From Candidatus Omnitrophota bacterium (GTDB lineage Bacteria; Omnitrophota; Gorgyraeia; JAGLLT01): a stretch of 64,000 nucleotides of DNA. Positions 13,111 to 39,122 of the stretch are shown in pieces. The position numbers and the translations under genes are program-made. Within the stretch, counting starts at the first letter, position 1; the number at the start of each line of letters is the position of its first letter. The stretch is from assembly GCA_030632085.1 (NCBI GenBank), contig DAOVJY010000005.1, positions 37,476 to 101,475 of the forward strand, given 5' to 3'. The notes under the pieces were generated by a model that made no database searches, was not told the DNA's origin, and saw only the letters and a program-made list of their open reading frames with translations.

Positions 13111-13203
13111 AATTATCTCCTTATTATTTATTTTATCTTTGGGTGTTCTTTGAGTTGTTCTACGGGCAATAGCATGGTTTATCTTTGATGCGTAAATAAA
13201 TTT

Positions 13204-14163: not shown

Positions 14164-17100
14164 TTCTCCCCGCTCCTTTGTATTTCATTTATTATATTCT
14201 GCCAGAGCTTTCGAGCATCTTCTAATCTTCCTTCCCGGCAATATTTATGGGCTAGCTCGTCTTGTTCTTTTAACTCCCGCTCAAAACAGACTTTCTCTTT
14301 AACATAGTCCTTTTCCTGAATATATAAAGCTCTGGCTTGATTATACACCTGAGCGTAAAGCAGCCTGGCCTCTTTTAGGTAGCCGTCTTTTTGTAATTGT
14401 TTGGCTTTTTTAAGTTGGCTATTAAGTTCTTTAATTAGAATATCGTTTTTCTCGGCGCGCTCAAAAGCCCACTTATCTATATCTTTCCTGAGTTGTTTCT
14501 CTTTGGACTTATCTTTCTCTCTCTCTGACCTGTCGTAGAACTTACCTGTCACCCTGATAAAAGGCCCATGAGATGTGTAATCAAGGTGGGTTAAGTCGTC
14601 ATTAAAGTCGGTAAAGTTATAACCCAGGCCTAATTCGGCGTAGGGGCCGATTTGACGACTGATCTCCAAGAGAGCGCCTTGTTTGTAATCTTTGGCTTGC
14701 TTTTGTTTTAAGAACCTGTATTCGGCTCCTATTTTCCAGTTGTTATCTACAAAATAGTTTAGCCTGTTGACACTTAAAAAGGTCTGGCTTTCGGTAAAAT
14801 CAAAACCTGTCACTCTTTCATCAGTCATTTTAAGGGCTACTTTTTCTACCAGCTGCCATTTTCTCGATAAGTCATAGGCGCCCTCAGCAGCTATAACATG
14901 GGCTTTTTCTTCTTCTATGTTTTCATAGTCATCCTGTGATGAAGGTGAATCATTCCTTAAATATGTATATTTACTAAAGAAGTTCAACTTATCACAGGTA
15001 ACCGGCCTGTAAGCGGCCGCTAAAGAAAATTCCTGATAGAGGCCTTGTCTGGTATCTGCCGTGGTGTTATCGCTTTGAGACAGATTCGCCTTGGCGAAAA
15101 GAGTCGTGTTTTCGTTGGGTTTTAACTCTAGGGCATTATAAGAGAGATACTGCCTGGCATTCTCCCGGGACTTATCAACTCTCAATTCCAGTTTACTGGA
15201 GGCTTTAAACCAGTCATTATCAACATAACTTCCGCCTAAACTTATAGCGTTTCTTTTTGTTTGGGTGCCGTCTAAGTTTTGAACCTCGCCGCGCTCAAAT
15301 TGAACAAAACCGGCGGCCTTATCATTAATATCACCTGATAAGCCGAGGATATTAGTATTGGTCTTTTCGCCTTCTAATAAAGATTTTTCTTCTTCCATTT
15401 TGAATTCCATGCCGTTTTCAAATTTTCTTTTCGTTCCGGTAACCTGAGAATATTTTTTACCTTCTAACTCATCGTGGGAGACGGTATAGGTGTGATATAT
15501 CTCATCGCCCTCATCGCCTTTGGCCCGGGTAGTTAAAGAAAAACTATTATCGGTAGATGAGCTGCCGAAACGGCCTATGGCATAGTCACCTAAAACCTCT
15601 AATTTATCAGTTATGTTATAACTGGCGCCCAAGTTGGTAGCCGCGCCCTTGGTGCCCAGGGCCTGTTTAGCCCTTAAGGTCAGGTTTTCATTTATTTTAG
15701 TTTGGATACCGGCCGTTGTCTGGTTGTTAGTCTCGCCCTTCAGGGTGGTTTGCTGCCCCAGAGATAAAATAACATCTTCGGTTAATTTATAATCGGCCTT
15801 TAAAGCCAGAAGGTCTATGTCCGCGTTAGATTCAGACTCATAGGCGGCAATAACGCCTTCGGCTTTCTGGTGGCGGTATTCGCCGGTAAATTTTAATTTT
15901 TCTAGTTTATGAGTAATCTGAGCTGATGTAGTCTGGGTTTTATTGGCGCCTACCTGCAGGGAGCTTTGAGCGTTGCCGCCATCTATGAGCTCCTGGGTAT
16001 CATGGCGTAAAGCAATGTGGGTATTATCCGTCAGGTTATAAGTTAATTTACCACCGGTAAGCTCTTTACCTTGTTCCTGCGCGGTGCTTATGGAAGAAAA
16101 GTTATCTTCAACTTTCTTATAATAAGCCTCAAGGCCCAGATCTTTGATTATATAGGAACTTAAACTGAGGCCATAGGCTCTTCCTCTGGCGGCTTCATCG
16201 CTTAGAAGCTCGCTAAAAGAAAGGCCGCCATCGGTAGAGATATAGCTGGATAGTTCTTTCGAGCGGCTTTCGGCGTATTCGGCGGTAATGGTGGTTTTAT
16301 CGCCCAGCCTCAAAGAAGCGTCTGTGCCGGCTAACTGATAGTTGTTGTCCACCTGTTCTTCTTTAACATAGGTACCGCCCACCGAGAGATAGTCGCCCAG
16401 CGCCTGTTCAACGCGGCCGCCATAAATACCTCTGTCATATTTGTCTTTTGTTTCATATTCATAGTCTACAGTTACATAGACGGGATTACCGTTAAGTAAA
16501 TAGTTTGAGATAATAGTATCTGACTCGGTTATATGCGATATTGGCTGCCAGAAGATAATCCGGCCGTTATCATAATCTATCTCATAGTCAAAACCTTCGT
16601 CCTGCTCCATAGCGGCCAGAACAAGGCCGCTTATCTTGTCTCTGACTTCAATGGTTATCTTTTCAGACCCCTCTATAACTCTCTTATGTTTAAGGTAGAA
16701 TAAGGAGCCGCCGGTCCCTAAAAACTCAACGTGGGCCGCTTGCTGCTGAGCCCTGGCCTTAAAGGCGATTAAATGGGTTAACGGTTGTCCGAACTTAGTT
16801 TTAGAAACTGACTCATAGTCTAACTTGGCGCCATAGAGGCTGCGTTTAAAGCTCGCTATATCGGTATCGGTAAAGTCGATTACATAATTGCCCCAGGTAA
16901 ATGAAGACTTATCCCATTCAACTAATAAGTAGAGAGCTCCCTGGGTTTGGGTGGCTTGATAATCAATAGTTGAGGTATCTCCATAAATTGGGTAATATTT
17001 ATCCGGATCTAAATTGCGGAAGAGTTCTTTTTGTTTGCGGTCTGTGTCCAGACTTGAAGTGATTAAAAACTTGCCCAGGATTTTGCCTTTTAGATAGTAG

Positions 17101-20100
17101 GCCAGTTTGCCTTCAGACCAGAAGCCTTCCTGATACTTATCGTCATGCCGGATGGGCTCTATGCTACCGGAATGGAAGGTGTAGCCCGCCTTGGCGTCTC
17201 CCATAGCTATAAAGAAAAGATAGCTGTCGTTGACTGAGAGTTTTTTAGTGGTAGTTACCTGTTTGCCGGCGGCATCGGTTCCGCTCACGAAAACTTTATG
17301 CTCTCCTTCCGGAATTATTAATTCATATTCGCTGTTTTGGTTTTGAGTTATAGAATCGGCATCAATTTTTTTTCCATCAACATAAATAACATCTACCGGG
17401 TTTTTGTCGCCTGAATAATTAATAACTTTTGTTTCAAAAATCTCTGTATTTTTAATTAAAAGAGTGTCGCCTTCAACTTTAATGGTTTGTTTCTTGAGAG
17501 AGTTTCCGGCGGCTTCTTTTTTAAGCCACTTGTTTTTCAGCTTTTCTTCTTTTGTTTTTGATAGCTGAGAGCTGACAGCTGATGACTGATAGCTGACGAC
17601 TGAAAGCTTCTTTTCTTTTGTTGTATCCTGCCTGCCATTTTTACCAGTTACGATCAAAACATATACATAATTCCTGTTAGATGTTAAATGCTGAACGCTG
17701 GATGCTTTTGCGTCGGACGTCCGGCGTCGGACGTCTAACTCTCCATTCCAATAAACGGGTTTATTTATATTAAAGCTGTCGCCTCTAAATATCTTCACTA
17801 TTTCTCTGGTGTCTTTGTCTAAAATCTCTATCCGCCATCTTTTAATAAATAGCGAATAATTCGTAAATATTCTAAATTCATAATCAGCTTTCAGCTTTCC
17901 TTCTTTTGTTTTTTTGCTTTTCCTATCCGCTATCCGCTCTACGCTATCCGCTATTTGCCTTGTGTCTTGTGTCTTGTGACTTATAACTTGTGATGGGTAT
18001 AAACTCACATTAAGCCTTGGTTTGGCCGTTTCCTTTTTCTGTATTATTTTTACTTGTGACTGGTGTCTTGTGTCTTGCCTGTGCCCGTCAGGGTATGACT
18101 TATTTTCAGTGTTCACCCCAAAATTTACCTTGGCCAGTAAACCGTTGGTTATATCTACAACAACAACTTTATCCGTAGTTAAGTAAGCGCCTTCGGGCAG
18201 GGTGCTTTCATCTAATCTAAGGAGATGCCTTCCGGGCCTTACGGCCGGAATATGATATCTGCCGTTTTTATCGGTGGTGACTACGGTGCCGTCCTCCATA
18301 ACAATCCGGACATAGGCAATACCTGATTCCGAATTGATAGATGCTGGATGTCCGATGTCCGACGATAAAGCCCCCTGCTTTCTGTTTTTGTCGGACGCTA
18401 TTTTTTTAGTGAGTTGATTAGATTGTTGGTTTTGGCGGCTATTTCGTTGCACAGATTCAGTAAATCCTTCGCCTTTCCATCCTGAAGATACTGAAGTCGA
18501 ACTGCTATTTTGAGCAAGGTCATTACTTCGTACAGGGAACCCCTTGCTTGATAAAGGAACTGAATAAATACTTTGTTGTGATAACAACCCTTCCCTTCCG
18601 CTATGTTCAACGGTACTGAAACTACCGCTCTCTGTAGTTGAGATATCATGCCGAATTATTCCTTGTTTGGAAAATTCTTCGTTATTTTGTAAATTTTCTC
18701 TGTTAGTTCCATCCCTTTCTGCCATACTTCCAACTTCTCGAATTGATACTCCATTTTTCGCTCCTTTTTGACATCCGACATTCGACGTCGGGCATCTAAC
18801 ATTATCTTGATAGCCGTTTTCATTCTTATCCCAAAAGACCTTACCGATAAGATTACCTAAATCAAAGAGAGGGTCGAGGGTTATCTTGACTGTGGCCGAG
18901 TCTTTATTGGAGATAACCGTCTCGTCGGAGTATCTGGCCCAGGCCCTGTTTTCATAGTTGCCCTGGGTAACGCCGGAACCTATTATCAGCTGGTACTTTA
19001 GGGTTCTGGTTGTTTGAGCATTAACTGTGCCTATGTCGAATAATAAGGCGGTTGAGCCTTTAGGGTTAACGGGTATATTATCCAGGATGGCTTTGCCGCT
19101 TACATACTTAAAGCCTCCCGGAATCCTGTCTTCTAAGAAGACGTTTTTAACATCTGTTGAGCCGATGTTCTTGATGGTGACGGTATAGGTGACGATATCG
19201 CCTATGACGGCCTCTTTTTTATTAGCTTCCTTCTTAATTTTCAGCAAGAGGTTGTTAGAGTCCATGGGGTGATCCATCTCTATGATAACCCCGGCGACGG
19301 TAAAGACCTCTCCTTTAGAGCCGGTGACTATCACCCTTCCCGTAGAAAAGGTTGTCTTTTTAGAAGGATATGTATACCCCGGGGCTTCCACGGTGATATA
19401 GAAGTTGGCGTTGGCGCATAAGAAGCTGTAGGCGCCATCGGTGCCTGTCGTCTGGGGGTTAAGGTCACTGCCGGCTATGTCTGTCCCCGGCACGCAGAGC
19501 GTACCGTTCTGATTATAGATAGTTACAATAGCGTTAGCTATGGGTTCGTTGGTGGTTGAATCAAAGACGATACCGAAGGGATCGGTGAAACTATAACTAA
19601 CAACGTCGCTGGCGGTACCGGCAACGGTAACGGTTAGATAGTTAGTGCCCTTTACAAGCGAGGAGGTATAGCTGGAACTAACTATGCTCCAGGTACCATC
19701 CGCGGCGGTAACAGTAGCTGCCACATCCGTTAAAAGCAGGTTGCCGTCGGCGTCCCAGGCTGAGACTGTCACATTTTGCCCCGCTAATCCGGAACCTGAT
19801 AAAGCGGGCTTTGCGCTGCTGATCTTATCTCCGTCAACAGGTGAAGTAATCGTCGGAACTTGATTGGTGGTGGTGGGAACTACTACTGTAACGTTAACAG
19901 GAGCGCCTAAAGTAGCCCCGACATCCGCCCTGATATTATTAGCTCCCGCGGCCAGAGTAGCGCTATAGTCGGCCTGCCGTACTATATAATTACCGTTGGC
20001 ATCGGCGGTTACCTGAGCAACGGTCTGATAAGCGGCGGCTCCAACCGTGCCTTTTATAGTTACCGTATCACCCGCTCCGGAAGAACCTCTTATGGTTGGC

Positions 20101-21605
20101 TGTTGGCCAACGGTCTTGGCCGCTTGAGGTGTTGATATCGAAAGGTTTTTAAAAACCCAGTTAGCGTTATTATTACCTGAATCGGTTGACGCATAACAGG
20201 TTGTTGTATTGGTGTTGGCATCCGCGTCTTTTACATCAACGAAGCTAACCGTCTGGCTGCCGTTAGGCAAAGTGATGTCCCACTTATTACCGGCTGAGGT
20301 TGAACGCAGGGTAACTAAACTTCCGCTTGTTCCGGTTAAGGTTAGGATGTTATCTACCGTTTGGGTGGTACCGACGGTAAAGTTAATCTGTTTGTTGGAC
20401 GTGGTACAGCTTAAGTTATAAAATGTAGAGCTTCCCGAAACAACTGAAGTCTGAGCGCTATCATCAAAGACAACCGTACCGCTTGAGTGAACGAACGCGC
20501 CGCCCGAACGAGCAAAGTTACCGGCAACATTAAAGTCGCCGCTTGGAGCGGTTAATGTGCCGCCGGAAATAACAACATTACTGTCGGCATTTATCGTGCC
20601 GTTTAGCGCATTCAATGTTCCACCGCTTACGGTAAGATCGCCGCTGGTTTTCAAATTTGAAGATGTTGTAAATGTTCCCGCCGAAACTGATAAAGCGCCA
20701 TGGTCAGTCGTTCCTGTCTCGAATTGATTTGAGATATTCCAGCCGCCTCCGGTCAGGCCGCTTAAATCTAAGGTGCAGACATCGCATTTAAAGGTTCCGG
20801 ATGAAGTAAATGAACCTGTATAACCACCGGTTACAGTAAAATCCCCCTGGTCTAAATCAAAGGCGTCAAGAATGCAAACGTTGTTCGTGGCGTTAAAGAT
20901 AACATCGTCGTCTGCGGCCGGGGCTCCATCTCCTACCCAGTTTGCCGCTGTAGTAAAATTGCTATTACCTCCGCCACCATCCCAGACATAAGCATCTGCA
21001 GTAAGTGAAGCATCATCAAACTTACCGGTTTCACTGACCGCAACGCTTCCAAATATAACCCTGACCTTAGCTGTATTTGCGGGGGCGGTTCTGGTTAAGG
21101 TTTTCTGAACCCATGAGGTAGTTACAGTAATGGTGATTTCATCGTTGGATATCTCAACGTCGCCGCTGTCAAACCAGATAAGCTTCATATAGAAACTGCC
21201 GGCGAGAACGCCGGCATCTCTTAATGTCCAAAGCGTATAAGTATATTCAACCCCTTCTGCCGCATTAACCTCCTGATAGGCTTCACCTGTTCCGCCAGCT
21301 ACGAAATCAGCCATAGCCATGCCATAGGTGCCGCTATGATTAGCCCAGTTTTCTCTTTGAGCACAGCCCGATCTTGTCCAGTTATCAGCGTCGGGGCCAA
21401 GTGGTGCAGGATTCTCAAAACCAGGATTTAACAGCAGGTTTCCTGTTGCCGCATAAATATTACCGGGCGCGAACAACAAAAACGCCCCCGCCAAAAATAA
21501 AAAGATGGGAACAATCCCCATCTCTCTTTTAATAGAAAACGCACTCCTAAAATAAGTTACTACCCTTAACAAGCGCCCGACAATCATTCTGCTTCCTTCC
21601 CCCAA
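14160..21605 (-). CDS. Giant (2481 aa) secreted multidomain surface protein: CBM-like N-terminus, Gly/Thr-rich beta-helix-like repeats, Ig-like and SdrD-B/CnaB-like domains, C-terminal beta-rich region and coiled-coil tail
   Basis: Continuous ORF; likely true start at the internal MGIVPIFLFLAGAFLLFA signal peptide; DUF11-like segment (VTYTVTIKNIGSTDVKNV); CnaB-like TDKNGRYHIPAVRPGRHLL. Contains in-frame repeat-derived low-complexity segments (see findings). Confidence 0.6.
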   Translation of the reverse strand: MGEGSRMIVGRLLRVVTYFRSAFSIKREMGIVPIFLFLAGAFLLFAPGNIYAATGNLLLNPGFENPAPLGPDADNWTRSGCAQRENWANHSGTYGMAMADFVAGGTGEAYQEVNAAEGVEYTYTLWTLRDAGVLAGSFYMKLIWFDSGDVEISNDEITITVTTSWVQKTLTRTAPANTAKVRVIFGSVAVSETGKFDDASLTADAYVWDGGGGNSNFTTAANWVGDGAPAADDDVIFNATNNVCILDAFDLDQGDFTVTGGYTGSFTSSGTFKCDVCTLDLSGLTGGGWNISNQFETGTTDHGALSVSAGTFTTSSNLKTSGDLTVSGGTLNALNGTINADSNVVISGGTLTAPSGDFNVAGNFARSGGAFVHSSGTVVFDDSAQTSVVSGSSTFYNLSCTTSNKQINFTVGTTQTVDNILTLTGTSGSLVTLRSTSAGNKWDITLPNGSQTVSFVDVKDADANTNTTTCYASTDSGNNNANWVFKNLSISTPQAAKTVGQQPTIRGSSGAGDTVTIKGTVGAAAYQTVAQVTADANGNYIVRQADYSATLAAGANNIRADVGATLGAPVNVTVVVPTTTNQVPTITSPVDGDKISSAKPALSGSGLAGQNVTVSAWDADGNLLLTDVAATVTAADGTWSIVSSSYTSSLVKGTNYLTVTVAGTASDVVSYSFTDPFGIVFDSTTNEPIANAIVTIYNQNGTLCVPGTDIAGSDLNPQTTGTDGAYSFLCANANFYITVEAPGYTYPSKKTTFSTGRVIVTGSKGEVFTVAGVIIEMDHPMDSNNLLLKIKKEANKKEAVIGDIVTYTVTIKNIGSTDVKNVFLEDRIPGGFKYVSGKAILDNIPVNPKGSTALLFDIGTVNAQTTRTLKYQLIIGSGVTQGNYENRAWARYSDETVISNKDSATVKITLDPLFDLGNLIGKVFWDKNENGYQDNVRCPTSNVGCQKGAKNGVSIREVGSMAERDGTNRENLQNNEEFSKQGIIRHDISTTESGSFSTVEHSGREGLLSQQSIYSVPLSSKGFPVRSNDLAQNSSSTSVSSGWKGEGFTESVQRNSRQNQQSNQLTKKIASDKNRKQGALSSDIGHPASINSESGIAYVRIVMEDGTVVTTDKNGRYHIPAVRPGRHLLRLDESTLPEGAYLTTDKVVVVDITNGLLAKVNFGVNTENKSYPDGHRQDTRHQSQVKIIQKKETAKPRLNVSLYPSQVISHKTQDTRQIADSVERIADRKSKKTKEGKLKADYEFRIFTNYSLFIKRWRIEILDKDTREIVKIFRGDSFNINKPVYWNGELDVRRRTSDAKASSVQHLTSNRNYVYVLIVTGKNGRQDTTKEKKLSVVSYQSSAVSSQLSKTKEEKLKNKWLKKEAAGNSLKKQTIKVEGDTLLIKNTEIFETKVINYSGDKNPVDVIYVDGKKIDADSITQNQNSEYELIIPEGEHKVFVSGTDAAGKQVTTTKKLSVNDSYLFFIAMGDAKAGYTFHSGSIEPIRHDDKYQEGFWSEGKLAYYLKGKILGKFLITSSLDTDRKQKELFRNLDPDKYYPIYGDTSTIDYQATQTQGALYLLVEWDKSSFTWGNYVIDFTDTDIASFKRSLYGAKLDYESVSKTKFGQPLTHLIAFKARAQQQAAHVEFLGTGGSLFYLKHKRVIEGSEKITIEVRDKISGLVLAAMEQDEGFDYEIDYDNGRIIFWQPISHITESDTIISNYLLNGNPVYVTVDYEYETKDKYDRGIYGGRVEQALGDYLSVGGTYVKEEQVDNNYQLAGTDASLRLGDKTTITAEYAESRSKELSSYISTDGGLSFSELLSDEAARGRAYGLSLSSYIIKDLGLEAYYKKVEDNFSSISTAQEQGKELTGGKLTYNLTDNTHIALRHDTQELIDGGNAQSSLQVGANKTQTTSAQITHKLEKLKFTGEYRHQKAEGVIAAYESESNADIDLLALKADYKLTEDVILSLGQQTTLKGETNNQTTAGIQTKINENLTLRAKQALGTKGAATNLGASYNITDKLEVLGDYAIGRFGSSSTDNSFSLTTRAKGDEGDEIYHTYTVSHDELEGKKYSQVTGTKRKFENGMEFKMEEEKSLLEGEKTNTNILGLSGDINDKAAGFVQFERGEVQNLDGTQTKRNAISLGGSYVDNDWFKASSKLELRVDKSRENARQYLSYNALELKPNENTTLFAKANLSQSDNTTADTRQGLYQEFSLAAAYRPVTCDKLNFFSKYTYLRNDSPSSQDDYENIEEEKAHVIAAEGAYDLSRKWQLVEKVALKMTDERVTGFDFTESQTFLSVNRLNYFVDNNWKIGAEYRFLKQKQAKDYKQGALLEISRQIGPYAELGLGYNFTDFNDDLTHLDYTSHGPFIRVTGKFYDRSEREKDKSKEKQLRKDIDKWAFERAEKNDILIKELNSQLKKAKQLQKDGYLKEARLLYAQVYNQARALYIQEKDYVKEKVCFERELKEQDELAHKYCREGRLEDARKLWQNIINEIQRSGEK
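17560..18000. repeat. Composite short-repeat block inside the giant ORF
   Basis: Degenerate tandem 7-mers (CAGCTGA, TCTTGTG, CGCTATC), palindrome CGTCGGACGTCCGGCGTCGGACG (17711-17734), and reverse complement of the TAGAGCG-GTAGCGGATAGG core seen at 36991, 54697, 56738 and 58590. Confidence 0.45.
18347..18797. mobile_element. Inverted-repeat-flanked ~450-bp insertion carrying the four-helix-bundle gene (MITE/IVS-like)
   Basis: Ends GGATGTCCGATGTCCGACG (18347-18365) and GACATCCGACATTCGACGTCGGG (18771-18793) are near reverse complements; the insert interrupts an SdrD-B-like domain yet keeps the host frame open. Confidence 0.4.
18398..18754 (-). pseudogene. Four-helix-bundle protein gene (TIGR02436 / 23S-rRNA-IVS-protein / Avd-like) with in-frame TAA at codon 33, embedded in the giant ORF in another frame
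   Basis: ATG at 18752-18754 with AAAGGAG RBS; translation MEYQFEKLEVWQKGMELTEKIYKITKNFPNKE*FGMISQLQRAVVSVPLNIAEG... carries the family's NIAEG motif; frame offset +1 from host ORF. Confidence 0.6.
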
Positions 21606-22066: not shown

Positions 22067-22921
22067 CTATTTGGTAAGGATTTTGATAAGACGATCAAGG
22101 TCTCTGTTGCTGTAATAATCAATTACTATTTTACCTCTTTTTCGTCCTTTGATGATTGAAACTTTGGTGCCAAGATTATTTCGGAGACTCTCTTCCGCGG
22201 CCTTTAGGTAGGAATCAACTTCTTTGACTTTTTTTGGCTTTGTTCCGCTTGCGGTATGTTTTTTAACTAATAACTCCGTTTCTCTTACGGATAAGCCTTT
22301 TTTTGCAATATTTTCAACAAGTATTATTTGTTTGTTCGCGCTCTCGATGGAAAGTAAGGCTCTTGCGTGCCCCATTGAAACTGTTCCACGTGAAACATAA
22401 TCCTGCACTACAAGCGGTAACTTAAGCAAGCGTAATGAATTAGCAATCGTTGATCTGTTCTTGCCTACAGCATCAGAAACGTTTTCTTGAGATAAGTTAA
22501 ACTCATTTATAAGGCGTTCGTAAGCGTGGGCTTCTTCTATAGCGTTGAGCTCCTGCCTTTGTATATTCTCAACCAAAGACAACTCTAATGCTTCTTTATC
22601 CTTAACGTGCCTAATAATAACAGGTGCCTTTGCTTGCCCCAGCTCTTTAAGTGCCCGATACCTTCTTTCACCTGCTATTAATTCATATTTTTGCTCTCCC
22701 GCGCCACTTCTTAAAGGGCGAACAATTAAAGGCTGTACTATTCCCTTCTCTTTTATCGATGAAACAAGCTCTTCATGCTTGGAGGCATCAAAATTCATTC
22801 TTGGCTGAAATCTGCCCGGCTCAAGCAATTTAATGTCAACTTCTTTTATTGTCTGTTGAGAGCCTTCTGCTTTTTTGGGTATTAAGGCCTCAATTCCCCT
22901 TCCAAGCGCTTTCTTCTTCAT
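22067..22921 (-). CDS. parB: Chromosome partitioning protein ParB
   Basis: ParB/Spo0J box GERRYRA, HTH region, adjacent to parA and parS. Confidence 0.9.
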   Translation of the reverse strand: MKKKALGRGIEALIPKKAEGSQQTIKEVDIKLLEPGRFQPRMNFDASKHEELVSSIKEKGIVQPLIVRPLRSGAGEQKYELIAGERRYRALKELGQAKAPVIIRHVKDKEALELSLVENIQRQELNAIEEAHAYERLINEFNLSQENVSDAVGKNRSTIANSLRLLKLPLVVQDYVSRGTVSMGHARALLSIESANKQIILVENIAKKGLSVRETELLVKKHTASGTKPKKVKEVDSYLKAAEESLRNNLGTKVSIIKGRKRGKIVIDYYSNRDLDRLIKILTK

Positions 22922-23178
22922 GTTAGGTCTCCGTAGTTATTAACAAATTATTCAACTAAACAATATTTGTAGTTGCTCTCATAAATAAAAAAAGGCTTAA
23001 CACAAATATAACAGCCAGTGCAATTGCTAAACAAGCAAGGCCATTGCCCTTTCTATTATTCAAAGACGTGTCGCGAAACGCTAAAACCGCAAACAAAAAG
23101 GCGAGCACGGCCTTCTCTGTACCCAGAAACTGCACATAACAACTTAAGCCTAAAAGTAGGGCAGCTATAGCAAAAGCA

Positions 23179-24021
23179 CTAGTCTCTTGTGTCTGGCGAG
23201 TCAAGAACTTCCTCCTGAGCTAATTGTTCATAATCACTTTCAATTGAAGCAGTTACGTCCATATTTCTTTGTAGAAACTCTTCTGTTAGCTCTTTATACT
23301 TCTCCGCCCCCACCGAACCCTTATCATACAAAAGGACCGGCTTTCCAAATCCGGGCGCCTCGCTTAACCTGATGTTTCTTGGAATTACGCTTTTAAAAGT
23401 TTTTTCCGGAAAATGTTTTTTGATTTCATCAATTACTTCATGTGTAAGCTTAGTTCTAAAGTCAGCCATAGTTAAAACAACCCCGACAATTTCTATTGCC
23501 GGATTTAAATTATTCTTTACTAAATCTAAAGTATTCAACAACTTACTCAAGCCTTCAAGTGCGTAATATTCACACTGCAACGGCACCAAGACCATGTCAC
23601 ATGCGGTTAGAGCATTTATAGTTAAAAGTCCCAACGAAGGAGGCGTGTCAATAATCGTATAATCATACCTCCGCTTTGCCTCTTCGAGAACTTTTTTAAG
23701 CTTGTATTCTCTTGCAATTGTTCCCACGAGTTCCACTTCGAGACCGGTTAAATCAATATTTGAAGGAATGATAAATAAATTAGGTAGGTGTATGTTCTTA
23801 ACGATGTTGTTTAATTTTGCCTTTTCGAGCATTAAATCATACAAGCTCTCTTTTACGGTTTCCTTGTTAACACCTATTCCGCTAGTCGCGTTTCCTTGCG
23901 GATCCGCATCAACAATAAGTGTTTTTTTGCCCGCAAAAGCCAAAAAAGCGGCAAGGTTGATGGCGGTTGTGGTTTTCCCAACTCCACCTTTTTGATTACA
24001 TATGGTTACTATTTTACCCAT
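23179..24021 (-). CDS. parA: Chromosome partitioning ATPase ParA/Soj
   Basis: Deviant Walker A KGGVGKTT; conserved ParA architecture. Confidence 0.9.
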   Translation of the reverse strand: MGKIVTICNQKGGVGKTTTAINLAAFLAFAGKKTLIVDADPQGNATSGIGVNKETVKESLYDLMLEKAKLNNIVKNIHLPNLFIIPSNIDLTGLEVELVGTIAREYKLKKVLEEAKRRYDYTIIDTPPSLGLLTINALTACDMVLVPLQCEYYALEGLSKLLNTLDLVKNNLNPAIEIVGVVLTMADFRTKLTHEVIDEIKKHFPEKTFKSVIPRNIRLSEAPGFGKPVLLYDKGSVGAEKYKELTEEFLQRNMDVTASIESDYEQLAQEEVLDSPDTRD

Positions 24022-24245
24022 TAAGTTTGTTTTGTTTCACGTGAAACATTTTTTTGAGGCTCCTTAAGAGAAACCTTAACTTTGGCTTGTTTTGACCCCT
24101 TCATACCAAAAAGGCCCTTGTTGCCTTCCACCAAAACTTTTACTTCTACGCAATCACGCTCAACTCCAAGCTTGAGGAGTGCTTTTTTTATCGCATCTTT
24201 AACTGTGACGCCTTCAATATCAATAGACCTCATCTTTCTATTCAT
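24021..24245 (-). CDS. Small Jag/KhpB-like RNA-binding protein
   Basis: Position directly downstream of yidC as in the canonical yidC-jag arrangement; short KH-like fold sequence. Weak sequence evidence. Confidence 0.4.
   Translation of the reverse strand: MNRKMRSIDIEGVTVKDAIKKALLKLGVERDCVEVKVLVEGNKGLFGMKGSKQAKVKVSLKEPQKNVSRETKQT
24033..24048. promoter_or_regulatory. parS centromere-like site
   Basis: Exact 16-bp palindrome TGTTTCACGTGAAACA matching the canonical parS consensus, immediately upstream of parA. Confidence 0.8.
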
Positions 24246-25897
24246 TATACATCCACCAATATTGTTTTTTCAAGCTTTTTTTGTATTATGAAGTGAGCCA
24301 GAGCCATTAAAGCGGTATTGACCGTCCAATACAACACCAACCCCGACGGCAGGCTATAAAAAATAAATCCAAAAACTATCGGCATCATAATCATCATTTT
24401 TTGTTGTTGCTGTTCCTGGGGGCTCTTTTCACCACTACCGCTCCTGGCACTCATGGATATTTTCTGCTGAACCACCATCGCAATCATCATTAATACAGGA
24501 AGCAGATTAAAGTTGTCGCCCAAAATAGGCAGCGTTCTGCCAAACGAAAATAATGCGTCCGGCAATGACAAGTCCTTTATCCATAGAAAGTTAGAACCTT
24601 TTAACATGGGAGATCTGGCCAGCGTCACATATAGAGAAATAAATATGGGCATCTGTAAAAGCATGGGTAGGCAGCCGCCCATAGGGTTTACATTGTGCTC
24701 TTTGTAAAGCTTCATCATCTCTGCCTGTAATTTTTTCTGGTCAGCTTTGTGTGTTTCTCTTAATTTTGTTAGGTGAGGCTGAACGGCCTGCATGTGCCTC
24801 ATTGACTTAACGTTTTTATATGTAAGGGGATACGTAAATATGTTTATTAAAATTACAAGGAATATGATTGCAACTCCGTAACTACCTGTTAAATTATAAA
24901 AAAAAGTTAATACTTTTATCAACAACTTACAAACAACATTTAACTTCCCATAATTTACAGCTTCGCCCATGCCGAGTGGCACCAGGTTTTTCTCCATCGT
25001 GGGGCCGGCATATAACATATACTGATGAACCGCCTCTGATCCACCCGGAACAATTACCGATTCAACGCCAGCACCTAAAGACCAGTCGTCTTGGTCCTTT
25101 GAGGCACCTTTGGACCACGATAAATATGTATAACTTATGTCCTGGCGTGGTGTTATGATGGCTGAAGAGTGTGTGTTTCTTAAAACGGCCCACTTGGGAT
25201 TTTTAGCAAAATTATATACTTCCCCGCTTTTGGCGGCTTTTATCGCGTCTTTTGTTTTAACCCACAATAAATTTTTTCCATCATAGCTTCCCGCGTTTAA
25301 AAAACGCTTGTCCAAAACTGATGAAAACTGCAGATTAGTTGCTGCTGCCAGATCATACGAAATAACTTTGTCGCTCTTTGATTTATTGGAGAAAGTGATA
25401 TATAACTGTATATCATAGTTAGAGTTAGAAAAAATAAATCTTTTTTTAATTTCTAAATCTTTGTTGGCTTTGCTTATTAATGTAACTTCGTTTTCTGTAA
25501 TTTCAACAATCTTAAATTCGACAAGCTCTTCGCTTGAGCCCTTTAAAATCAGCTCCAGGGTTTTTAGAGCGTTTGGGCCCGCTAGCAGCAGGGGTTTTTC
25601 TGAAAACCCAGCATCACCATTTCCTTTAATCCAGAGCTTATTTATCCCCGCGCTGGCGGTGGATAATTCCGCCTTAAGAAAAGCCGTTTTAATTTCAACT
25701 ATCTTTTCATCGCTCTTCTTTCTTTTTGCTGTTTTTTCTACTACCGGTGACTTAAGGGGCTCTACGGCCGTTTCTTCGGCCACCCTTTCGTTTGTGCTTT
25801 TTTTAGCCGGTTTATTTGTAGGCGTTAATAATGAATAAGCTCCCAAGATGGCCATGATTAATACAATGGCTGCTATAAATCTTTTTTGATCATTCAT
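24245..25897 (-). CDS. yidC: Membrane protein insertase YidC
   Basis: N-terminal TM, periplasmic domain, conserved C-terminal TM core (GGCLPMLLQMPIFISLY). Confidence 0.9.
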   Translation of the reverse strand: MNDQKRFIAAIVLIMAILGAYSLLTPTNKPAKKSTNERVAEETAVEPLKSPVVEKTAKRKKSDEKIVEIKTAFLKAELSTASAGINKLWIKGNGDAGFSEKPLLLAGPNALKTLELILKGSSEELVEFKIVEITENEVTLISKANKDLEIKKRFIFSNSNYDIQLYITFSNKSKSDKVISYDLAAATNLQFSSVLDKRFLNAGSYDGKNLLWVKTKDAIKAAKSGEVYNFAKNPKWAVLRNTHSSAIITPRQDISYTYLSWSKGASKDQDDWSLGAGVESVIVPGGSEAVHQYMLYAGPTMEKNLVPLGMGEAVNYGKLNVVCKLLIKVLTFFYNLTGSYGVAIIFLVILINIFTYPLTYKNVKSMRHMQAVQPHLTKLRETHKADQKKLQAEMMKLYKEHNVNPMGGCLPMLLQMPIFISLYVTLARSPMLKGSNFLWIKDLSLPDALFSFGRTLPILGDNFNLLPVLMMIAMVVQQKISMSARSGSGEKSPQEQQQQKMMIMMPIVFGFIFYSLPSGLVLYWTVNTALMALAHFIIQKKLEKTILVDV

Positions 25898-25915
25898 TCC
25901 TTAGTCTCTTTTCTT

Positions 25916-26161
25916 TTATTTTAGAGGATCGTATCCGCCCGCCGAAAAAGGATTGCATCTTACTATCCTTTTTACTGCCAACAACAAACCTTTGCTCAAT
26001 CCATATTTAGAAATAGCTTCGGTGGCATATTGACTGCAGCTGGGATAATATTTGCAGCACGGTGCTTTAAACGCTGTTAAATAGCGTCGATAAAACATTA
26101 TTATCAGCAAAAGTATTTTTTGAAATAGGCTACTAAATTTATTCATATTGCAGACAAACAA
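25916..26161 (-). CDS. yidD: Membrane protein insertion efficiency factor YidD
   Basis: YYPSCSQYA...RCNPFSAGGYDP motif characteristic of YidD. Confidence 0.85.
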   Translation of the reverse strand: MFVCNMNKFSSLFQKILLLIIMFYRRYLTAFKAPCCKYYPSCSQYATEAISKYGLSKGLLLAVKRIVRCNPFSAGGYDPLK

Positions 26162-26200
26162 CGAGCGCCTTTATAACGCCCGCCACTTTTATTTTTCATT

Positions 26201-26338
26201 TTATGCCGCTAGTTTTTTTCGGCCTTTTTGTCTTTTGGCCTTAATTATTTTTCGGCCGTCTCCGGTCTTCATTCTCTTTCTGAAACCGTGTTTTCTTTTT
26301 CTTTTCTTGTTTGATATTGGCTTTAAATTCTTTTTCAT
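26201..26338 (-). CDS. rpmH: 50S ribosomal protein L34
   Basis: Not in ORF track (45 aa). Minus-strand translation [45 protein letters not shown] matches the L34 pattern (KRKRxHGFRxRM...GRK). Confidence 0.85.
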
Positions 26339-26546
26339 AGTGCAACGATTATAACATAGTATTGTTTTAAGTCAAGTTTTTTTGCCTTATGTTTTAATGG
26401 GGATGCGGGGAGGTATAGTAAGTGTTTTTTTTATTTGAAAATTTTTCTTGAATAAAGTATTTGTTTTGTTATAATGCAACAAGATGGCAGGCATTAGCGC
26501 GTGTGGCCTGTTAATAACTTGTGGAAAACTTTAAAAAATTTTTAAT
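26339..26546. promoter_or_regulatory. oriC-associated region upstream of dnaA with dnaA promoter and DnaA-box-like sites
   Basis: Sigma70-like promoter TTGAAT(26448-26453)-16 nt-TATAAT(26470-26475); box-like TTTTCCACA (rc of 26520-26528) and TTATTAACA (rc within CTGTTAATAACTTGT). Gene strand switches from minus to plus here. Confidence 0.5.
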
Positions 26547-27893
26547 ATGTCAGAACTTCTATCAAAAGATATTTGGACTCAAGTCAAGGCTGTTCTAAAA
26601 GATAAGCTAAACCCTCAAAGCTTTAATGTTTGGTTTGCGCCTACAAAATCACTTTCATTAGACAATAACGTTTTGCGCGTAGAGGTTCCCAATAAGTTTT
26701 TTAAAGATTGGCTCGAGGAACATTATAGCCAGATAGCAACTCAAACCCTAAGCGCCTTAGCGGGCAAAACTTTGGATGTCGTTTATATTATCAGTAAAAG
26801 TAAACCTATTTGGCTTGATGATGACGCTCCTAAAACAGGCAGCCTCATTAAAGACAAAACGTCAGCGCTTAACGCCTTTAACCCTAAATATACCTTTGAT
26901 AACTTTGTTGTGGGCGCTTCAAATCGTTTTGCTCACGCGGCCGCGCTGGCCGTTTCAGAGCGTCCTGCTGAAGCATATAACCCTCTTTTTTTATATGGGG
27001 GTGTCGGCTTAGGAAAAACCCATTTAATGCAGGCGATTTGCCACCACATTTTAACTAAAAATCCTCAAATCAAGGCTGTTTATTTATCAAGCGAAAAATT
27101 CACCAATCAATTAATTGATGCTATTCAAAAAGGAACAACCCTAAAATTTAGAGAAAAATATCGTAATGTGGATATTCTTTTGGTAGACGATATTCATTTT
27201 ATTGCCGGCAAACAGAGCACCCAGGAAGAATTTTTTCACACATTCAACGCTCTCCGAGAAGCGCACAAGCAAATCGTTATTTCAAGCGATAGGCCCCCAA
27301 AAGAAATTTCCACCCTTGAAGAAAGGCTCGTTTCTCGCTTTGAGGGGGGATTAATAACCGATATACAAGCACCTGATTTTGAAACCCGGATAGCAATCCT
27401 AAGGAAAAAAGCTGAAAAGGAAGTTATTAACGTTCCCAACGAAGTCACCGCTTTTATTGCTGAAAAAATAGATAGTAATATTAGAGAATTAGAGGGCGCT
27501 TTAATAAGGGCCGTAGCCTATGCTTTATTAATAGGCGAAGAAGTAACCCTTGATTTAACTAAAGAGGTTTTAAAAGACACTCTGGCTGCCGGGCAAGAAA
27601 AAAGAATTACAATTGATTTAATACAAAAAAAAGTTGCCGAGTATTTTGATGTTAGGATTTCAGATATGAAAATCAAAAAAAGAACTCAAGCTGTTGCTTT
27701 TCCTAGACAAATTGCTATGTATTTATCTAGGGAGCTAACTGATAATTCTCTTCCGGATATAGGTGAAGCGTTTGGGGGCAAAGATCATACAACCGTTCTT
27801 CACGCTTACAAAAAAATATCTAAGCTTATATTGGAAGATGTGGATAAAAGAGCTACTATTGATAGGATAACCTCTGAATTAAAGAGGCATTAG
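26547..27893 (+). CDS. dnaA: Chromosomal replication initiator protein DnaA
   Basis: AAA+ Walker A GGVGLGKTHL, Walker B LLVDDIHF, C-terminal DNA-binding domain. Confidence 0.95.
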   Translation: MSELLSKDIWTQVKAVLKDKLNPQSFNVWFAPTKSLSLDNNVLRVEVPNKFFKDWLEEHYSQIATQTLSALAGKTLDVVYIISKSKPIWLDDDAPKTGSLIKDKTSALNAFNPKYTFDNFVVGASNRFAHAAALAVSERPAEAYNPLFLYGGVGLGKTHLMQAICHHILTKNPQIKAVYLSSEKFTNQLIDAIQKGTTLKFREKYRNVDILLVDDIHFIAGKQSTQEEFFHTFNALREAHKQIVISSDRPPKEISTLEERLVSRFEGGLITDIQAPDFETRIAILRKKAEKEVINVPNEVTAFIAEKIDSNIRELEGALIRAVAYALLIGEEVTLDLTKEVLKDTLAAGQEKRITIDLIQKKVAEYFDVRISDMKIKKRTQAVAFPRQIAMYLSRELTDNSLPDIGEAFGGKDHTTVLHAYKKISKLILEDVDKRATIDRITSELKRH

Positions 27894-28096: not shown

Positions 28097-29187
28097 ATGG
28101 AACTTACCGCCTTAAAAGCCGATTTAATAAAAGCTACGCAAATAACTCAAAATGTTATTTCTAATCAAGCAGCACTTCCCATACTATCTAATTTATTATT
28201 AGAAGCAAAAAACGATATAATTAAAATAATAACAACAGACCTGGATATAGGAATAAGTTATTCATTTAAAGCGGATATAATTAATGATGGAGTAATAACT
28301 ATACCGGCTAAGAAGTTTTCGGATATTATTAAGGAATTGCCCAATGAGGAAGTTAGGATAATTGTAAAAAAGAATAACATTGTAGAGGTGAGGTCTGCTA
28401 ACGCGTATTTTAAATTAATGGGCATAGCAAAAGAAGAGTTTCCTAAACTACCAACATTTGTAAATAAAGAATTTGTAACAATATCACAAAGTAGACTTAA
28501 GAAGATGTTAGAGATGAGTTTTTTTGCTATATCAAGAGATGAAACAAGGTATGTTTTGAATGGAGTTTTGATAGAGCTAAAAGAAAACCACATCAAAACA
28601 GTAGCAACGGACGGAAGAAGGCTTGCTTTAATAGAGACGCGGGGAAACTTCCCTCAAAAAATAAATAAAAAAATAATAATACCTTCTAAAACGGCACAAG
28701 AATTAATGAGGAACCTAAATCAAGAAGGGGAAGCGAGAATAATATTTTCTGAAAATCAGGCGTGTTTTGAATTTGATAATATTATTTTAACTACCAGATT
28801 AATAGAGGGAGAGTTTCCGGAGTATAATAAGGTTATACCAAAAGAAATAAAAGGTAAAATAAAGATAAATAAAAGTAATTTATTTAAGGCGATTAAAAGA
28901 GTAGCCTTGTTTACAAACCCCGATTCAGTAGCAATAAAACTAGATATAACAAAAGATAAAATAGTTTTATCTAAAAGAACGCCGGATTTAGGTGAGGCAA
29001 GGGACGAAGTAGAGGTAAGGTTTGAAGGTAAGGAGATGTCAATTGGTTTTAACCCCAACTATCTAATAGATATATTGAAAGTTATTGATGAGGATGAAAT
29101 TGAGGTTGAGGTTGTGGATCCTCAGAAACCGGCAGTTATTAGGAGAACAGGTAAATTTGTCTTTATAGTATTACCTATGCAATTAAC

Positions 29188-29191
<4 letters not shown>
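28097..29191 (+). CDS. dnaN: DNA polymerase III beta sliding clamp
   Basis: Position after dnaA; three-domain clamp length (364 aa) and sequence character. Confidence 0.9.
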
Positions 29192-31990
<2,799 letters not shown>

Positions 31991-32015: not shown

Positions 32016-34460
32016 ATGTATACCAAGGGCGAAAAAATAATTCCGGTTTATATTGAAGACGAAATGAAAAGCTCATACATTGATTATGCGATGAGCGTAA
32101 TTGTGGGCAGGGCTTTGCCCGACATTAGAGACGGCTTAAAACCCGTACATAGGCGAATACTTTTTTCAATGAAAGATCTTTCGCTGTGGCATAATAAGCC
32201 CTATAAAAAGTGCGCTAGAATTGTTGGTGATTGTCTGGGCCGCTTTCATCCCCACGGCGATACAGCTGTTTATGATGCCCTGGTGAGAATGGTTCAGGAA
32301 TTTTCATTGAGGTATCCCTTGATTGAGGGCCAGGGTAACTTTGGCTCTATAGACGGTGATCCGGCCGCCGCAATGAGATATACTGAGGCAAGAATGCAGG
32401 CCATCACGAATGAGATGTTAAAGGACCTTGAAAAAGATACGGTTGATTTTGCTCCTAATTTTGACAACTCTCTAAAAGAGCCCAGGGTTTTGCCGGCAGC
32501 TATACCAACATTGCTTATAAATGGCTCTAGCGGTATCGCGGTCGGTATGGCCACAAATATACCCCCGCACAACTTGGGCGAAGTTGTTGACGCGATTATA
32601 ACTGTAGTTGATAATCCGGAAACTAGCATTAAAGACTTGATGAAAATAATTAAAGGGCCGGATTTTCCCACCGGCGGCACAATATGCGGCAGAGAAGGAA
32701 TAAGAGCGGCATATAATACGGGACGTGGGCGCATAAAATTAAGAGGTAAGGCCTATATCGAAACCTCTAAAAACAGCAGAGAAGCTATAATAATTTCTGA
32801 ATTACCGTATCAGGTAAATAAAACTAATCTTGTTGAGCAAATTGCCGCTTTAGTTCAAAACAAAAAGATTGAAGGCATCAGCGACTTAAGAGATGAATCT
32901 TCAAAAGAAGGCATACGAGTAGTTATTGATGTTAAAAGGGGCCACCCGCCGCAGGTTATTTTAAATCAATTATACAAGCATACTCAAATGGAGACAACGT
33001 TTGGCATCATTATGCTGGCGTTGGTTAGTAATCAACCCCGAGTGCTCAACCTTAAAGAAGTGATTGAGCATTTTATTAAACATCGTATAGATATTATAAC
33101 CAGAAGAACGAAGTTTGAATTGGCCAAAGCGGAAGCCAGGGCACATATTCTCGAGGGACATAAGGTTGCTCTTAAAAACCTGGACGAAGTTATAAAAATA
33201 ATTAAAAAGTCAAAAACGCCCGCCGCCGCCAAGGAAAACCTCATCAAAAAGTTTGTTTTCAGCTCTATTCAGGCGCAAGCGATTCTTGAAATGCAGCTTC
33301 AGCGTTTAACCAACATGGAAGTAGAAAAAATAGAAAAAGAGTATCTGGAATTACTTAAAACTATAGAGAAATTAAAGTTTATTCTTGAAAACCCCAAGAA
33401 AGTGCTGGGGATTATCAAAGATGAGCTGAGGGAAATTAAAAAAAAATACAACGACGACAGGCGAACGGATATAGTGGCAGCGGTTGATGAACTTGATGTG
33501 GAGGATTTGATCGCTAACGAAAGTATGGTTATGACCATGAGTCACGCGGGTTATATAAAGAGAATACCGGTTTCTTCTTATAAAAAACAGAGACGCGGCG
33601 GTGTGGGCGTCATTGGGGCTCAGTTGCGGGAAGAGGATTTTGTAGAGCATCTCTTTATTGCATCAACGCACGATTACATCCTTTTCTTTACGGATAAGGG
33701 CAAGGTGTATTGGTTGAAGGTTTATGGGGTGCCGCAAAGCACCAGAACAGCCAAAGGAAGAGCTGTGGTTAATTTATTGCAATTGACCAAAGACGAAAAT
33801 ATCACTTCTTTTATACCCGTGGTGGAATTTTCAGAAGATAAATATTTGGTTTTAGCTACAACAAAGGGTATAATTAAGAAAACAAAATTATCATCCTATA
33901 GCAATCCTCGCAAGGGTGGCATCATCGCAATTACACTCAAAGAAGACGACAAGCTTATCGCTTGCGGAGTTACTGATGGTAAAGATGAGATTTTGATGGC
34001 CGCGCGCATGGGCAAAGCAATAAGGTTCTCCGAGTCTCAGGTAAGAGATATGGGCAGGTCGGCCGCTGGCGTTAGAGGAATAAAGCTTAGCGAAAAAGAT
34101 ACTTGCATAGGCATGGAAATAGCCAAAAAAGACGCGGACCTACTTTCCGTTACGCAGGAGGGATTTGTAAAACGCACACCCATAGACAAGTATAGAAATC
34201 AATCTCGCGGAGGCAGAGGCGTTATCAATATAAAAGCTACCAAACGCAACGGTGAAGTTGTGGCTATTAATACAGTTGATGACAAAGATGAGTTGATGGT
34301 AATAACTTCCGGCTCAATGATAGTCCGTTGCGCCGTTAAAGACATAAGATCTATTGGCCGCAACACACAGGGCGTTAAACTTATTTCGTTAAAAAATAAT
34401 GATAAAGTTGTGGCCGTTGCTAAAATTGCATCAGAGGAAGAGGCAGAAAAAGAAGAATAA
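32016..34460 (+). CDS. gyrA: DNA gyrase subunit A
   Basis: Active-site region [10 protein letters not shown], GyrA-box-like beta-pinwheel repeats in C-terminal domain. Confidence 0.95.
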
Positions 34461-37109: not shown

Positions 37110-37138
37110 TTGACAAAGTGCCACCAACCTTATATAAT
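37110..37138 (+). promoter_or_regulatory. Consensus sigma70-type promoter upstream of tRNA-Ser
   Basis: TTGACA (37110-37115), 17-nt spacer, TATAAT (37133-37138). Confidence 0.55.
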
Positions 37139-37170: not shown

Positions 37171-37294
37171 AGATCTCACACCCGCCCTTGGCAGGTTCGA
37201 GATCCAATTTGCTTGTTGAAATTACACGTAAAAGATCTCTCGCCCGTCTTTGGCGAGTTCGAGATCCAATTTGCTTGTTGAAATTGTACAAATT
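37171..37294 (+). repeat. Tandem ~60-nt leader repeat (2 units) immediately 5' of tRNA-Ser(UGA)
   Basis: Two units of AGATCTC-N17-GTTCGAGATCCAATTTGCTTGTTGAAATT; the same arrangement precedes the second tRNA-Ser at 56511-56607. Confidence 0.5.
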
Positions 37295-37382
37295 GGAGGA
37301 GTGGCTGAGCGGTTGAAAGCGGCGGTCTTGAAAACCGTTGTGCCGAAAGGTACCGTGGGTTCAAATCCTACCTCCTCCGCCA
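37295..37382 (+). tRNA. tRNA-Ser (anticodon UGA)
   Basis: Cloverleaf by eye: acceptor GGAGGAG/CTCCTCC, 3-bp D-stem, anticodon loop CTTGAAA, long variable arm, T-loop TTCAAAT, ends GCCA. Confidence 0.85.
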
Positions 37383-39053
37383 GTGATACCAATTCGAACC
37401 TTTGCGTTTCTCGTCTAAGAGCGCAAGGGTTTGAATTTTTGTATGGGCGACATAGTACGGCTTGAATTTCTTTTCGCCGCTATGGATAATCTGATAAAAG
37501 TCTGAATCCTCATCAGATATTGGCTCAAGCCGAATTGGCCCAAGAACCTCTTTAAGAGCCAGGCCGGCTGTAACAGTATTCTTATTCAGTGTTTCGCGTA
37601 ATCTCTCAAGTCTTAAGTTAATCCATTCCTTTGCAGGCGCCTTAAAGGTATTCTGCTGCTGAAATTCCAACGAGACAATTTCCTGTTTTAGGCTTTCACT
37701 CCTCTTTTCTGTTTCATTTAGAGCCTGTGATACTGATTTAGAAAAGTTTCCTATTTTAATGTAGTTAAGATAATTTTGTAGTTCAGATAGAAGCTTATCA
37801 AGCCGCGATTTCTTTTTTTTAATCAATTCAGGCACTTCATTCAGGCCGGAAGTAACAAGCTTTTCTACATTTTTATAAACGTAGCTTAAATTTTCAGCGG
37901 TTAATATCTTTTGCTTTAACTCTGAGATAATGGTTTGTTCTATTCTTTTGCGCGGCACAAGAAGGTTATTATTGCAGGTTTTTCTTCTGGCGTTATAGCA
38001 CCCGTAATAACCGCTTCCTTTTCCGCTAATAAGGACGATAGCTCCGCCGCAGATATCACATTTCATTAGCCCTGAAAGTAAGTAATTGGGACTGCCATAC
38101 ACATAACTTCTTTGCTTTGTTTGACTATTTTTTTCATTTTTTCTTATAGGCCATGTTCCCTTGATTTCTACCCATCTTTTTTGAGCCTTTCTCCATGTTT
38201 CCTTGTCAATTATAATTAATTCTTTTTTAAATATAGACAATTGTTCTTCTTTTGGGCGAGGAACCTTTTTTATTCTTCCCGTTATAGGATCTCTGAGATT
38301 TTTGTACTTTCTCCATATCCATAAGCCGGTATACTTTTCATTTTTTAAAATTCTACTTATAGTTGATATGTTCCATCCACCGGGACGCCCTCTTTTAGTT
38401 GGAATCTTATTTTTGTTAAGGTCCCGCGCTATTTTATTTAAACTTTTTCCTTCAATAAAGTTTTTATATATATCGCTAACAACATCAACTTCAGCGGGAT
38501 TTATTTTATGAACCATTCCTTCGTATTTAGGCTGCCCCTTCTTGTTTAGCTTTAATTCACCCGAGGGCTGGGTGTGATAGCCATAAACATGCTCGCCGGT
38601 GCTGAAACCTCTTATTTTTTGCCCCTCTAAGCCGCGCATTGTCTTTTTCTTAAGGTCATCAAGATATAACTCATTCATAAGCCCCCGTATATGAATACCT
38701 AATTTAGAATTTTCATCATCTGTTACAATGCCATCTGAAACAGAGATTATTTTAATTTGAAGGTAGTTAAATTTAAGCACAAGTGTCAACATTTGATGAT
38801 TGCTTCGAGAAAGACGGGATAAGTCATCTACCATAACCGCTTCAAATTCCTTATTTTCAGCAGCTATTTGCAGAGATTGTAATGCGGGACGATTAATAAT
38901 AGAACCTGAAATTGCTTCATCAATATAGATATGTCTATTTTTAACACTCATATCGTTGTCACGCGCGTAATTTTTACAGACTCTAATTTGATCATCAATG
39001 CTCTTTTCACTTTGATTTTCAGAAGAATACCTTGCGTATATTGCTACTTTCAT
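37368..39053 (-). CDS. Large serine recombinase (integrase)
   Basis: N-terminal resolvase catalytic domain ([12 protein letters not shown]), recombinase and zinc-ribbon domains (CDICGG...[10 protein letters not shown]); 3' end overlaps tRNA-Ser by 15 nt. Confidence 0.85.
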
Positions 39054-39122
39054 TTTAACCCCCCTTAATGACTACATGATTTACGAAAATCTTTGATTTT
39101 CTTAAATCGTTTGTAGGAATTA

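Follow-up and report, generated by a model that had tools for sequence, protein, structure and literature searches.

The gene for the protein subunit of RNase P, rnpA, is missing between rpmH and yidD in the 64-kb stretch of DNA analysed here (the window), and it has been removed from the same operon in a whole subclade of the Omnitrophota, while sister lineages of that phylum retain it. The window itself contains no rnpA, no rnpB and no gene for the protein-only enzyme HARP. Our favored explanation is that rnpA, together with rnpB, now lies elsewhere in the genomes of this clade, a best guess that we hold with about even confidence.

Nearly all Bacteria have a ribonucleoprotein RNase P. Among clade-wide losses the best documented is that of the Aquificaceae, where the first hint was a reduced rpmH-yidD-yidC gene order. 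Aquifex combines this order with the absence of both rnpA and rnpB and uses a protein-only HARP as its RNase P (PMC10941002). The reduced arrangement itself is therefore already known. What is added here, beyond the initial annotation of the locus, is the placement in Omnitrophota, the fixation of the deletion in one subclade by comparison with sisters that keep rnpA, and the parallel with Aquifex. We found no literature connecting Omnitrophota with RNase P.

Organization of the rpmH–yidD Locus

Ribosomal protein L34 (45 residues) is encoded by rpmH at 26201..26338 on the minus strand and matches Pfam Ribosomal_L34 (PF00468) over its full length with E = 3e-15; clustering at 90% identity groups its exact sequence with JGI entries titled 'large subunit ribosomal protein L34'. 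On the same strand, and in the canonical relative order, follow yidD (25916..26161; PF01809, E = 3.4e-28 over residues 15-79), encoding the membrane protein insertion efficiency factor, and yidC (24245..25897; PF02096, 3.6e-58, and PF14849, 8e-10), encoding a membrane insertase of 550 residues. YidD has 81 residues if translation begins at a TTG codon and 76 if it begins at the ATG at 26146.

The position occupied by rnpA in other bacteria is reduced to a spacer at 26162..26200 (minus strand) that holds no coding remnant. The initial annotation described rpmH as lying directly beside yidD at a distance of about 40 nt; the coordinates are exact, and the distance from the rpmH stop is 39 nt to the TTG start or 54 nt to the ATG. 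As was claimed there, this leaves no room for a gene of some 110 codons. The hairpin predicted in the spacer (26162..26200) is indistinguishable from those of shuffled sequence (z = -1.28), so that no hairpin or terminator is recognized in it. No rnpA open reading frame (PF00825) lies directly downstream of rpmH or overlaps it, and we confirm that rnpA is missing between rpmH and yidD.

One arrangement in which rnpA might be overlooked is the Thermus type, where the gene begins before rpmH and, read in a different frame, spans the whole of it. The window resembles this type in having no separate rnpA frame after rpmH, but the long overlapping RnpA frame is missing: the sole other-frame ORF over rpmH is 34 residues long, and no frame matches RnpA.

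A promoter-like site, TTGACT-16-TATAAT with an upstream TG, lies on the minus strand at 26348..26375, 10 nt before the rpmH start codon. It has 11 of 12 consensus matches and is the best-scoring site within 25700..26700; to judge from its sequence, it is probably the promoter of the rpmH-yidD-yidC operon. Beyond yidC the minus strand carries a Jag/KhpB homologue of 74 residues that consists of Jag_N only, without a KH or R3H domain (24021..24245; PF14804, 1e-17), then parA/soj (23179..24021; assigned from the precomputed Pfam matches of the identical gene in the ENA copy of the locus, L001), a small membrane protein of 82 residues with a DUF4190 match below the Pfam cut-off (22956..23204; PF13828, 3.5e-5) and parB (22067..22921; ParB_N, HTH_ParB and ParB_C in precomputed Pfam matches). 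Divergent from rpmH, on the plus strand, is dnaA (26547..27893), followed by dnaN (28097..29191), dciA (29188..29484), gyrB (29486..31990) and gyrA (32016..34460). These neighbors place the rpmH locus in the replication-gene (dnaA) region of the chromosome. The G+C content of the window is 38.5%.

The public gene calls for the corresponding ENA scaffold, scaffold_72, contain nothing between dnaA and yidC; rpmH and yidD are both missed (L001 9527..9979, equivalent to 25919..26371 of the window). The exact L34 sequence of the window is on record from a Logan assembly only. A survey of rnpA or other small genes that depends on protein databases can be blind for this organism.

Loss of rnpA from the Operon in One Omnitrophota Subclade

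Comparison of YidC sequences places the window organism in the phylum Omnitrophota. Its best match in named genomes, at 49% identity, comes from an Omnitrophota MAG, and all 11 of the named NCBI entries among the best 120 matches are Omnitrophica, Omnitrophota or Ca. Aadella gelida. The organism is also represented in ENA assembly ERZ23498525 (SAMN18200499), by scaffold_72, scaffold_3132 and scaffold_5.

In four Omnitrophota lineages, with YidC sequences 41-100% identical, rpmH stands directly before yidD. Besides the window these are L002 (YidC 49% identical to that of the window, spacer of ~80 nt), L139 (46%, ~35 nt) and L086/L087 (41%, 11 nt). Neither of two RnpA profiles finds a match at E ≤ 10 among the ORFs of at least 25 residues in L002, L086 and L139. 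The downstream order yidC-jagN-parA-DUF4190-parB is common to all four lineages.

By contrast, rpmH-rnpA-yidD is kept in at least 10 more distant Omnitrophota lineages, whose YidC is at most 39% identical to that of the window where measured. The rnpA-bearing loci are those of Ca. Aadella gelida (L082/L083), L084, L090-L095, L135/L136 and L140, together with L096, L097, L098, L100 and L101, which came from a metagenome scan. In Ca. Aadella gelida L083, for example, rpmH (9297-9434), rnpA (9434-9769) and yidD (9766-9996) are packed end to end. The flank gyrA-gyrB-dciA-dnaN-dnaA is common to all retrieved Omnitrophota loci except L084, and where the flanks of rnpA-bearing loci were retrieved the jagN-parA-parB side also matches, L084 again excepted. 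Ca. Aadella gelida (GCA_030765205.1) and the window thus agree in flanking synteny, in the type of L34 and in the Jag_N-only protein. They differ in that the canonical Omnitrophota operon includes an rnpA of 111-120 codons, with a start that overlaps or abuts the rpmH stop, and in that the window has a DUF4190 gene added between parA and parB.

Since four lineages have the rpmH-yidD junction and the lineages that keep rnpA are otherwise identical in synteny, the simplest reading is one old, clean deletion of rnpA. The junction occurs in four assemblies from different samples and hence is not an assembly artefact.

The DUF4190 gene marks the clade that lacks rnpA, with no evident link to RNase P. 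It lies between parA and parB in 4/4 lineages without rnpA and in 0/4 rnpA-bearing loci checked (L082, L090, L135 and L140). The copies in L086 (10973..11260) and L139 (12691..12990) are both annotated PF13828; that of L002, a 94-residue ORF at 7690..7974, is assigned by its position alone. Two further features of these loci may be recorded. Jag/KhpB is cut down to Jag_N, with 60-74 residues, in all of the Omnitrophota loci examined, whether or not they carry rnpA (L002, L082, L086, L090, L135, L139, L140 and the window). In L139 (JGI 3300077563, 2313..6176) gyrB encodes 1287 residues and contains an intein (PF14890); the gyrB product of the window has 834 residues and is intein-free.

Conservation of the Canonical Gene Order

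The initial annotation took rpmH-rnpA-yidD-yidC-(jag) as the canonical order, and both the literature (PMC10941002) and the present comparisons bear this out. Among the 66 sequences with L34 upstream of yidC, rnpA lies between the two in 62; the remaining four sequences are the window, L001 (its duplicate, from this organism's ENA assembly), the Omnitrophota relative L002 and an unrelated MAG, L052. Counting only L34-bearing control loci from other organisms, the canonical order is found in 62 of 63. A scan of metagenomes with the pattern AV[TQR]RNYI[RK]R, which covers just 18/62 Omnitrophota RnpA representatives, gave 39 RnpA loci, and L34 lies immediately upstream in 38 of them.

The exception in that scan, L123, is an AT-rich metagenome contig of another taxon, on which an rnpA of 131 codons (2445..2840) is preceded not by rpmH but by an unrelated ORF of 249 residues, presumably hemD-like as judged by eye. 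Here rnpA uncoupled from rpmH is seen directly, whereas no uncoupled rnpA has been observed for the rnpA-less Omnitrophota clade. L123 shows that rnpA can work away from rpmH, as any explanation that places the gene elsewhere requires.

A second, independent case of the reduced operon is L052 (JAEUSJ010000016.1, 'bacterium isolate new MAG-300', 4406..6623), from an AT-rich MAG unrelated to the window organism, with a YidC only 26% identical. Its rpmH-yidD-yidC genes, also without rnpA, are followed by probable mnmE and mnmG genes, assigned by eye.

Searches for RNase P Components in and beyond the Window

Two profiles were used to look for RnpA. The general profile was iterated from E. coli and B. 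subtilis RnpA as seeds over six-frame ORFs of 80 loci fetched by means of YidC; the second was built from 64 Omnitrophota-type RnpA sequences. ORFs were taken from stop to stop in six frames, with a minimum of 25 residues (cut-offs of 25-35), and matches were accepted to E ≤ 10. The profiles recover the gene in 63 control loci and in more than 10 Omnitrophota lineages, and neither gives a single match in the 64-kb window, whichever of the six frames is read. The suggestion that rnpA is absent from the neighborhood of rpmH thus holds for the window as a whole.

No RNase P RNA (Rfam RF00010/RF00011) was found in the window, either at the gathering score or at E ≤ 1, and none was found in L002, L086, L087 or L088. 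Pfam scans and precomputed matches gave no HARP/PIN_5 (PF08745/TIGR03875) or PRORP among the plausible window ORFs of at least 90 residues, a set that the 2481-residue ORF entered only through its overlapping precomputed gene call. L088 extends the sequence rightward beyond the window by ~9.6 kb. The genome-wide searches for RnpA, HARP/PRORP and RNase P RNA that the initial annotation proposed could be carried through for the window and these ~10 kb, the only DNA covered, and there all three are negative.

Protein and metagenome collections were used to look further afield. When 1.84 billion representatives were searched exhaustively by profile, a distinct RnpA family of the Omnitrophota type emerged, with 62 representatives at E ≤ 1e-10 and the consensus MKIKHILK..EF...G.K..G...LY...VG.IISKK..PKAVTRNYIRR.IY.YFR. 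With a profile of 64 top-scoring representatives, a collection of 5.8 billion proteins yielded at least 120 proteins; among those listed, ~26 are Omnitrophota-type and none can be traced to the sample of the window organism. Most of the query sequences themselves were not recovered by this word-indexed search, which is therefore no evidence of absence. Small genes may also be missing from the collection, since the public calls omit rpmH and yidD for the window organism. Within the compass of these insensitive protein searches and the metagenome scan no orphan Omnitrophota-type rnpA appeared, and every one with an inspectable context is canonical.

Two candidates were considered and set aside. 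P0293, alone among the matches listed, has the same pattern of sources as the window proteins (NCBI, Logan and ENA) and proved to come from another Omnitrophota with a canonical operon. P0303, of a second RnpA subfamily, belongs to a different organism and again to a canonical operon.

Some database proteins called RnpA are unusually long, with 159-172 residues (P0401, P0155, P0158, P0179 and P0194), and P0401 is called as an L34-RnpA fusion (PF00468 and PF00825). The long Omnitrophota proteins have lysine-rich N-terminal extensions that resemble rpmH read in another frame; they could be gene-calling artefacts or real overlaps.

tRNA Genes and the Need for 5′ Processing

The window contains two tRNA genes only, tRNA-Ser(tga) and tRNA-Ser(cga). 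A perfect TTGACA-17-TATAAT promoter sequence lies at 37110..37138, 157 nt upstream of tRNA-Ser(tga), and no promoter was found beside tRNA-Ser(cga). Both transcripts should therefore carry 5′ leaders, which suggests that RNase P activity is still needed and argues against a solution based on leaderless tRNAs. The 3′-CCA is encoded by both genes, as it is by tRNAs in four rnpA-bearing Omnitrophota lineages.

The two genes share ~100 nt of upstream sequence (37190..37294 and 56503..56607) that extends as far as their 5′ ends and is built of two tandem units of ~62 nt, each with a hairpin CTCGCC..GGCGAG, extended by GATCTC/GAGATC, and then GTTCGAGATCCAATTTGCTTGTTGAAATT. This repeat may be the cause of the assembly breaks that occur there.

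Relocation or Loss of rnpA

The history that we favor would begin in the ancestor of one Omnitrophota subclade, with a clean deletion of rnpA from gyrA-gyrB-dciA-dnaN-dnaA | rpmH-rnpA-yidD-yidC-jagN-parA-parB that left rpmH-yidD-yidC. The genes left behind would probably still be transcribed together, as a single operon, from the strong sigma-70-like promoter immediately before rpmH. RNase P activity would still be required, because tRNA-Ser(tga) lies ~150 nt downstream of a consensus promoter and a long 5′ leader is to be expected. The classical ribonucleoprotein enzyme may then have been retained, with rnpA, and rnpB as well, at some other place in the genome, outside the window.

That rnpA can exist apart from rpmH is seen in another taxon, on L123. 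Three considerations, none of them decisive, incline us toward a retained ribonucleoprotein enzyme: the absence of Omnitrophota from the published table of HARP-positive genomes, the CCA-encoding tRNA genes and the ecology of HARP. Against relocation, no relocated copy was found, and the Omnitrophota-type RnpA genes with inspectable context are all canonical. By analogy with Aquifex, moreover, the same reduced operon would mean true loss of rnpA and rnpB (PMC10941002). Parsimony also weighs against relocation, since moving rnpA alone takes a duplication and a deletion, and loss after functional replacement takes fewer steps.

It is possible, if rather less probable than relocation, that rnpA is truly gone, and probably rnpB with it, as in Aquifex, and that a protein-only RNase P encoded elsewhere has taken over, either a horizontally acquired HARP or an unrecognised analogue. 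We would then be dealing, and we put this forward only tentatively, with a mesophilic Omnitrophota subclade without RnpA, possibly without RNase P RNA, in which tRNA 5′ ends would be matured by a HARP-like or undescribed protein-only enzyme. The gene order of the window, rpmH followed by yidD and yidC with no rnpA, is exactly that described for A. aeolicus and A. pyrophilus (PMC10941002). In Aquifex as in the Omnitrophota clade, this order is confined to one lineage, and the rest of the phylum keeps rnpA. HARPs are scattered over further phyla, among them Verrucomicrobia and Planctomycetes of the PVC group, and are also found in unclassified bacteria, some of the latter having HARP only. The failure of every search to return an orphan Omnitrophota-type rnpA is consistent with true loss, as is the character of the deletion, which is clean and old, with spacers of 11 to ~80 nt in four lineages.

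The differences from Aquifex are nevertheless considerable. The window organism belongs to another phylum and gives no sign of thermophily, and there is no HARP in the available sequence; in Aquifex the loss of rnpA and rnpB is genome-wide, whereas for the window organism absence is known from the window and ~10 kb beyond. The lack of HARP/PIN_5 or PRORP among the larger window ORFs counts against loss, but the window is a small part of the genome and says little. HARP-bearing bacteria live mostly in extreme environments, and the HARP-only bacteria recognized so far are thermophiles. No Omnitrophota appear among the HARP-positive genomes of a genome-wide survey (Table S1 of PMC12153264). Unlike the Aquifex-type state, the tRNA genes seen in the window encode 3′-CCA, and a tested HARP cleaves CCA-bearing precursors ~10-fold more slowly (PMC12153264). 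Finally, RnpA is present in nearly all bacterial genomes surveyed. By analogy the signature of the window would denote true loss, as it does in the best-known instance, but it is opposed by a very strong prior for retention of RnpA in bacteria.

An rnpA that is present yet undetected, because it is extremely divergent, split or fused, seems improbable, be it in the window or elsewhere. It is true that the RnpA of Omnitrophota is divergent to begin with: against the general profile the Aadella protein reaches no better than E = 1e-14, and a single-sequence protein search with it returned only 2 matches. Yet the two profiles found nothing at E ≤ 10 in ORFs of 25 residues or more from the window, L002, L086 and L139, the 39-nt spacer is too short for a protein, and the 150 best RnpA representatives are all stand-alone proteins of at most 172 residues. 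We consider it very improbable that no RNase P is needed, with leaderless tRNAs as in Nanoarchaeum equitans, or that the junction is an artefact of assembly or binning, for although the conserved sequence of both tRNA-Ser genes reaches their 5′ ends, the only good promoter stands 157 nt upstream of tRNA-Ser(tga) with none beside tRNA-Ser(cga), so that leaders are implied, and independent ENA and Logan assemblies give an identical junction, which recurs in three further lineages from different samples.

A signature known from Aquifex and fixed in a subclade of an unrelated, uncultured phylum provides a cheap and sharply defined test case, and the sister lineages that have identical synteny and still carry rnpA afford a clean comparison. 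If rnpA and rnpB lie elsewhere, as we favor, the locus is an ordinary variant of gene order, useful as a clade marker and as a warning that the linkage of rpmH and rnpA is not absolute. If both are absent, the clade is a new natural experiment in which an ancient ribozyme has been replaced, and it is where one might seek a HARP outside extreme environments or a new type of RNase P. Such a loss would mean that ribonucleoprotein RNase P had been replaced across a bacterial clade a second time, independently, and now outside thermophiles and with tRNA genes that encode CCA.

Other Features of the Window

Adjoining tRNA-Ser(tga) is an integrative defence island (37295..54730). It encodes a serine recombinase (37368..39053, minus strand), RadC, a type III restriction-modification pair (40528..45118), a DrmMII-like C5 methylase, an HATPase/REase-like protein, an unknown protein of 430 residues and the Gabija proteins GajA (50496..52355; PADLOC, 5e-206) and GajB (52342..54114; PADLOC, 7e-170). 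In the ENA and Logan assemblies the island forms a separate scaffold of 17.4 kb, and the tRNA marks the exact end of ENA scaffold_72.

A gene cluster on the minus strand (468..21605) encodes three large proteins of 1020-1148 residues with F5/8 type C (discoidin) domains, two of them also glycoside-hydrolase-like. The same strand of the cluster encodes a LacI-family regulator (7732..8745), a protein with a weak PEP-CTERM match (E = 0.004, under the Pfam cut-off), a TPR protein and a giant protein of 2481 residues (14160..21605).
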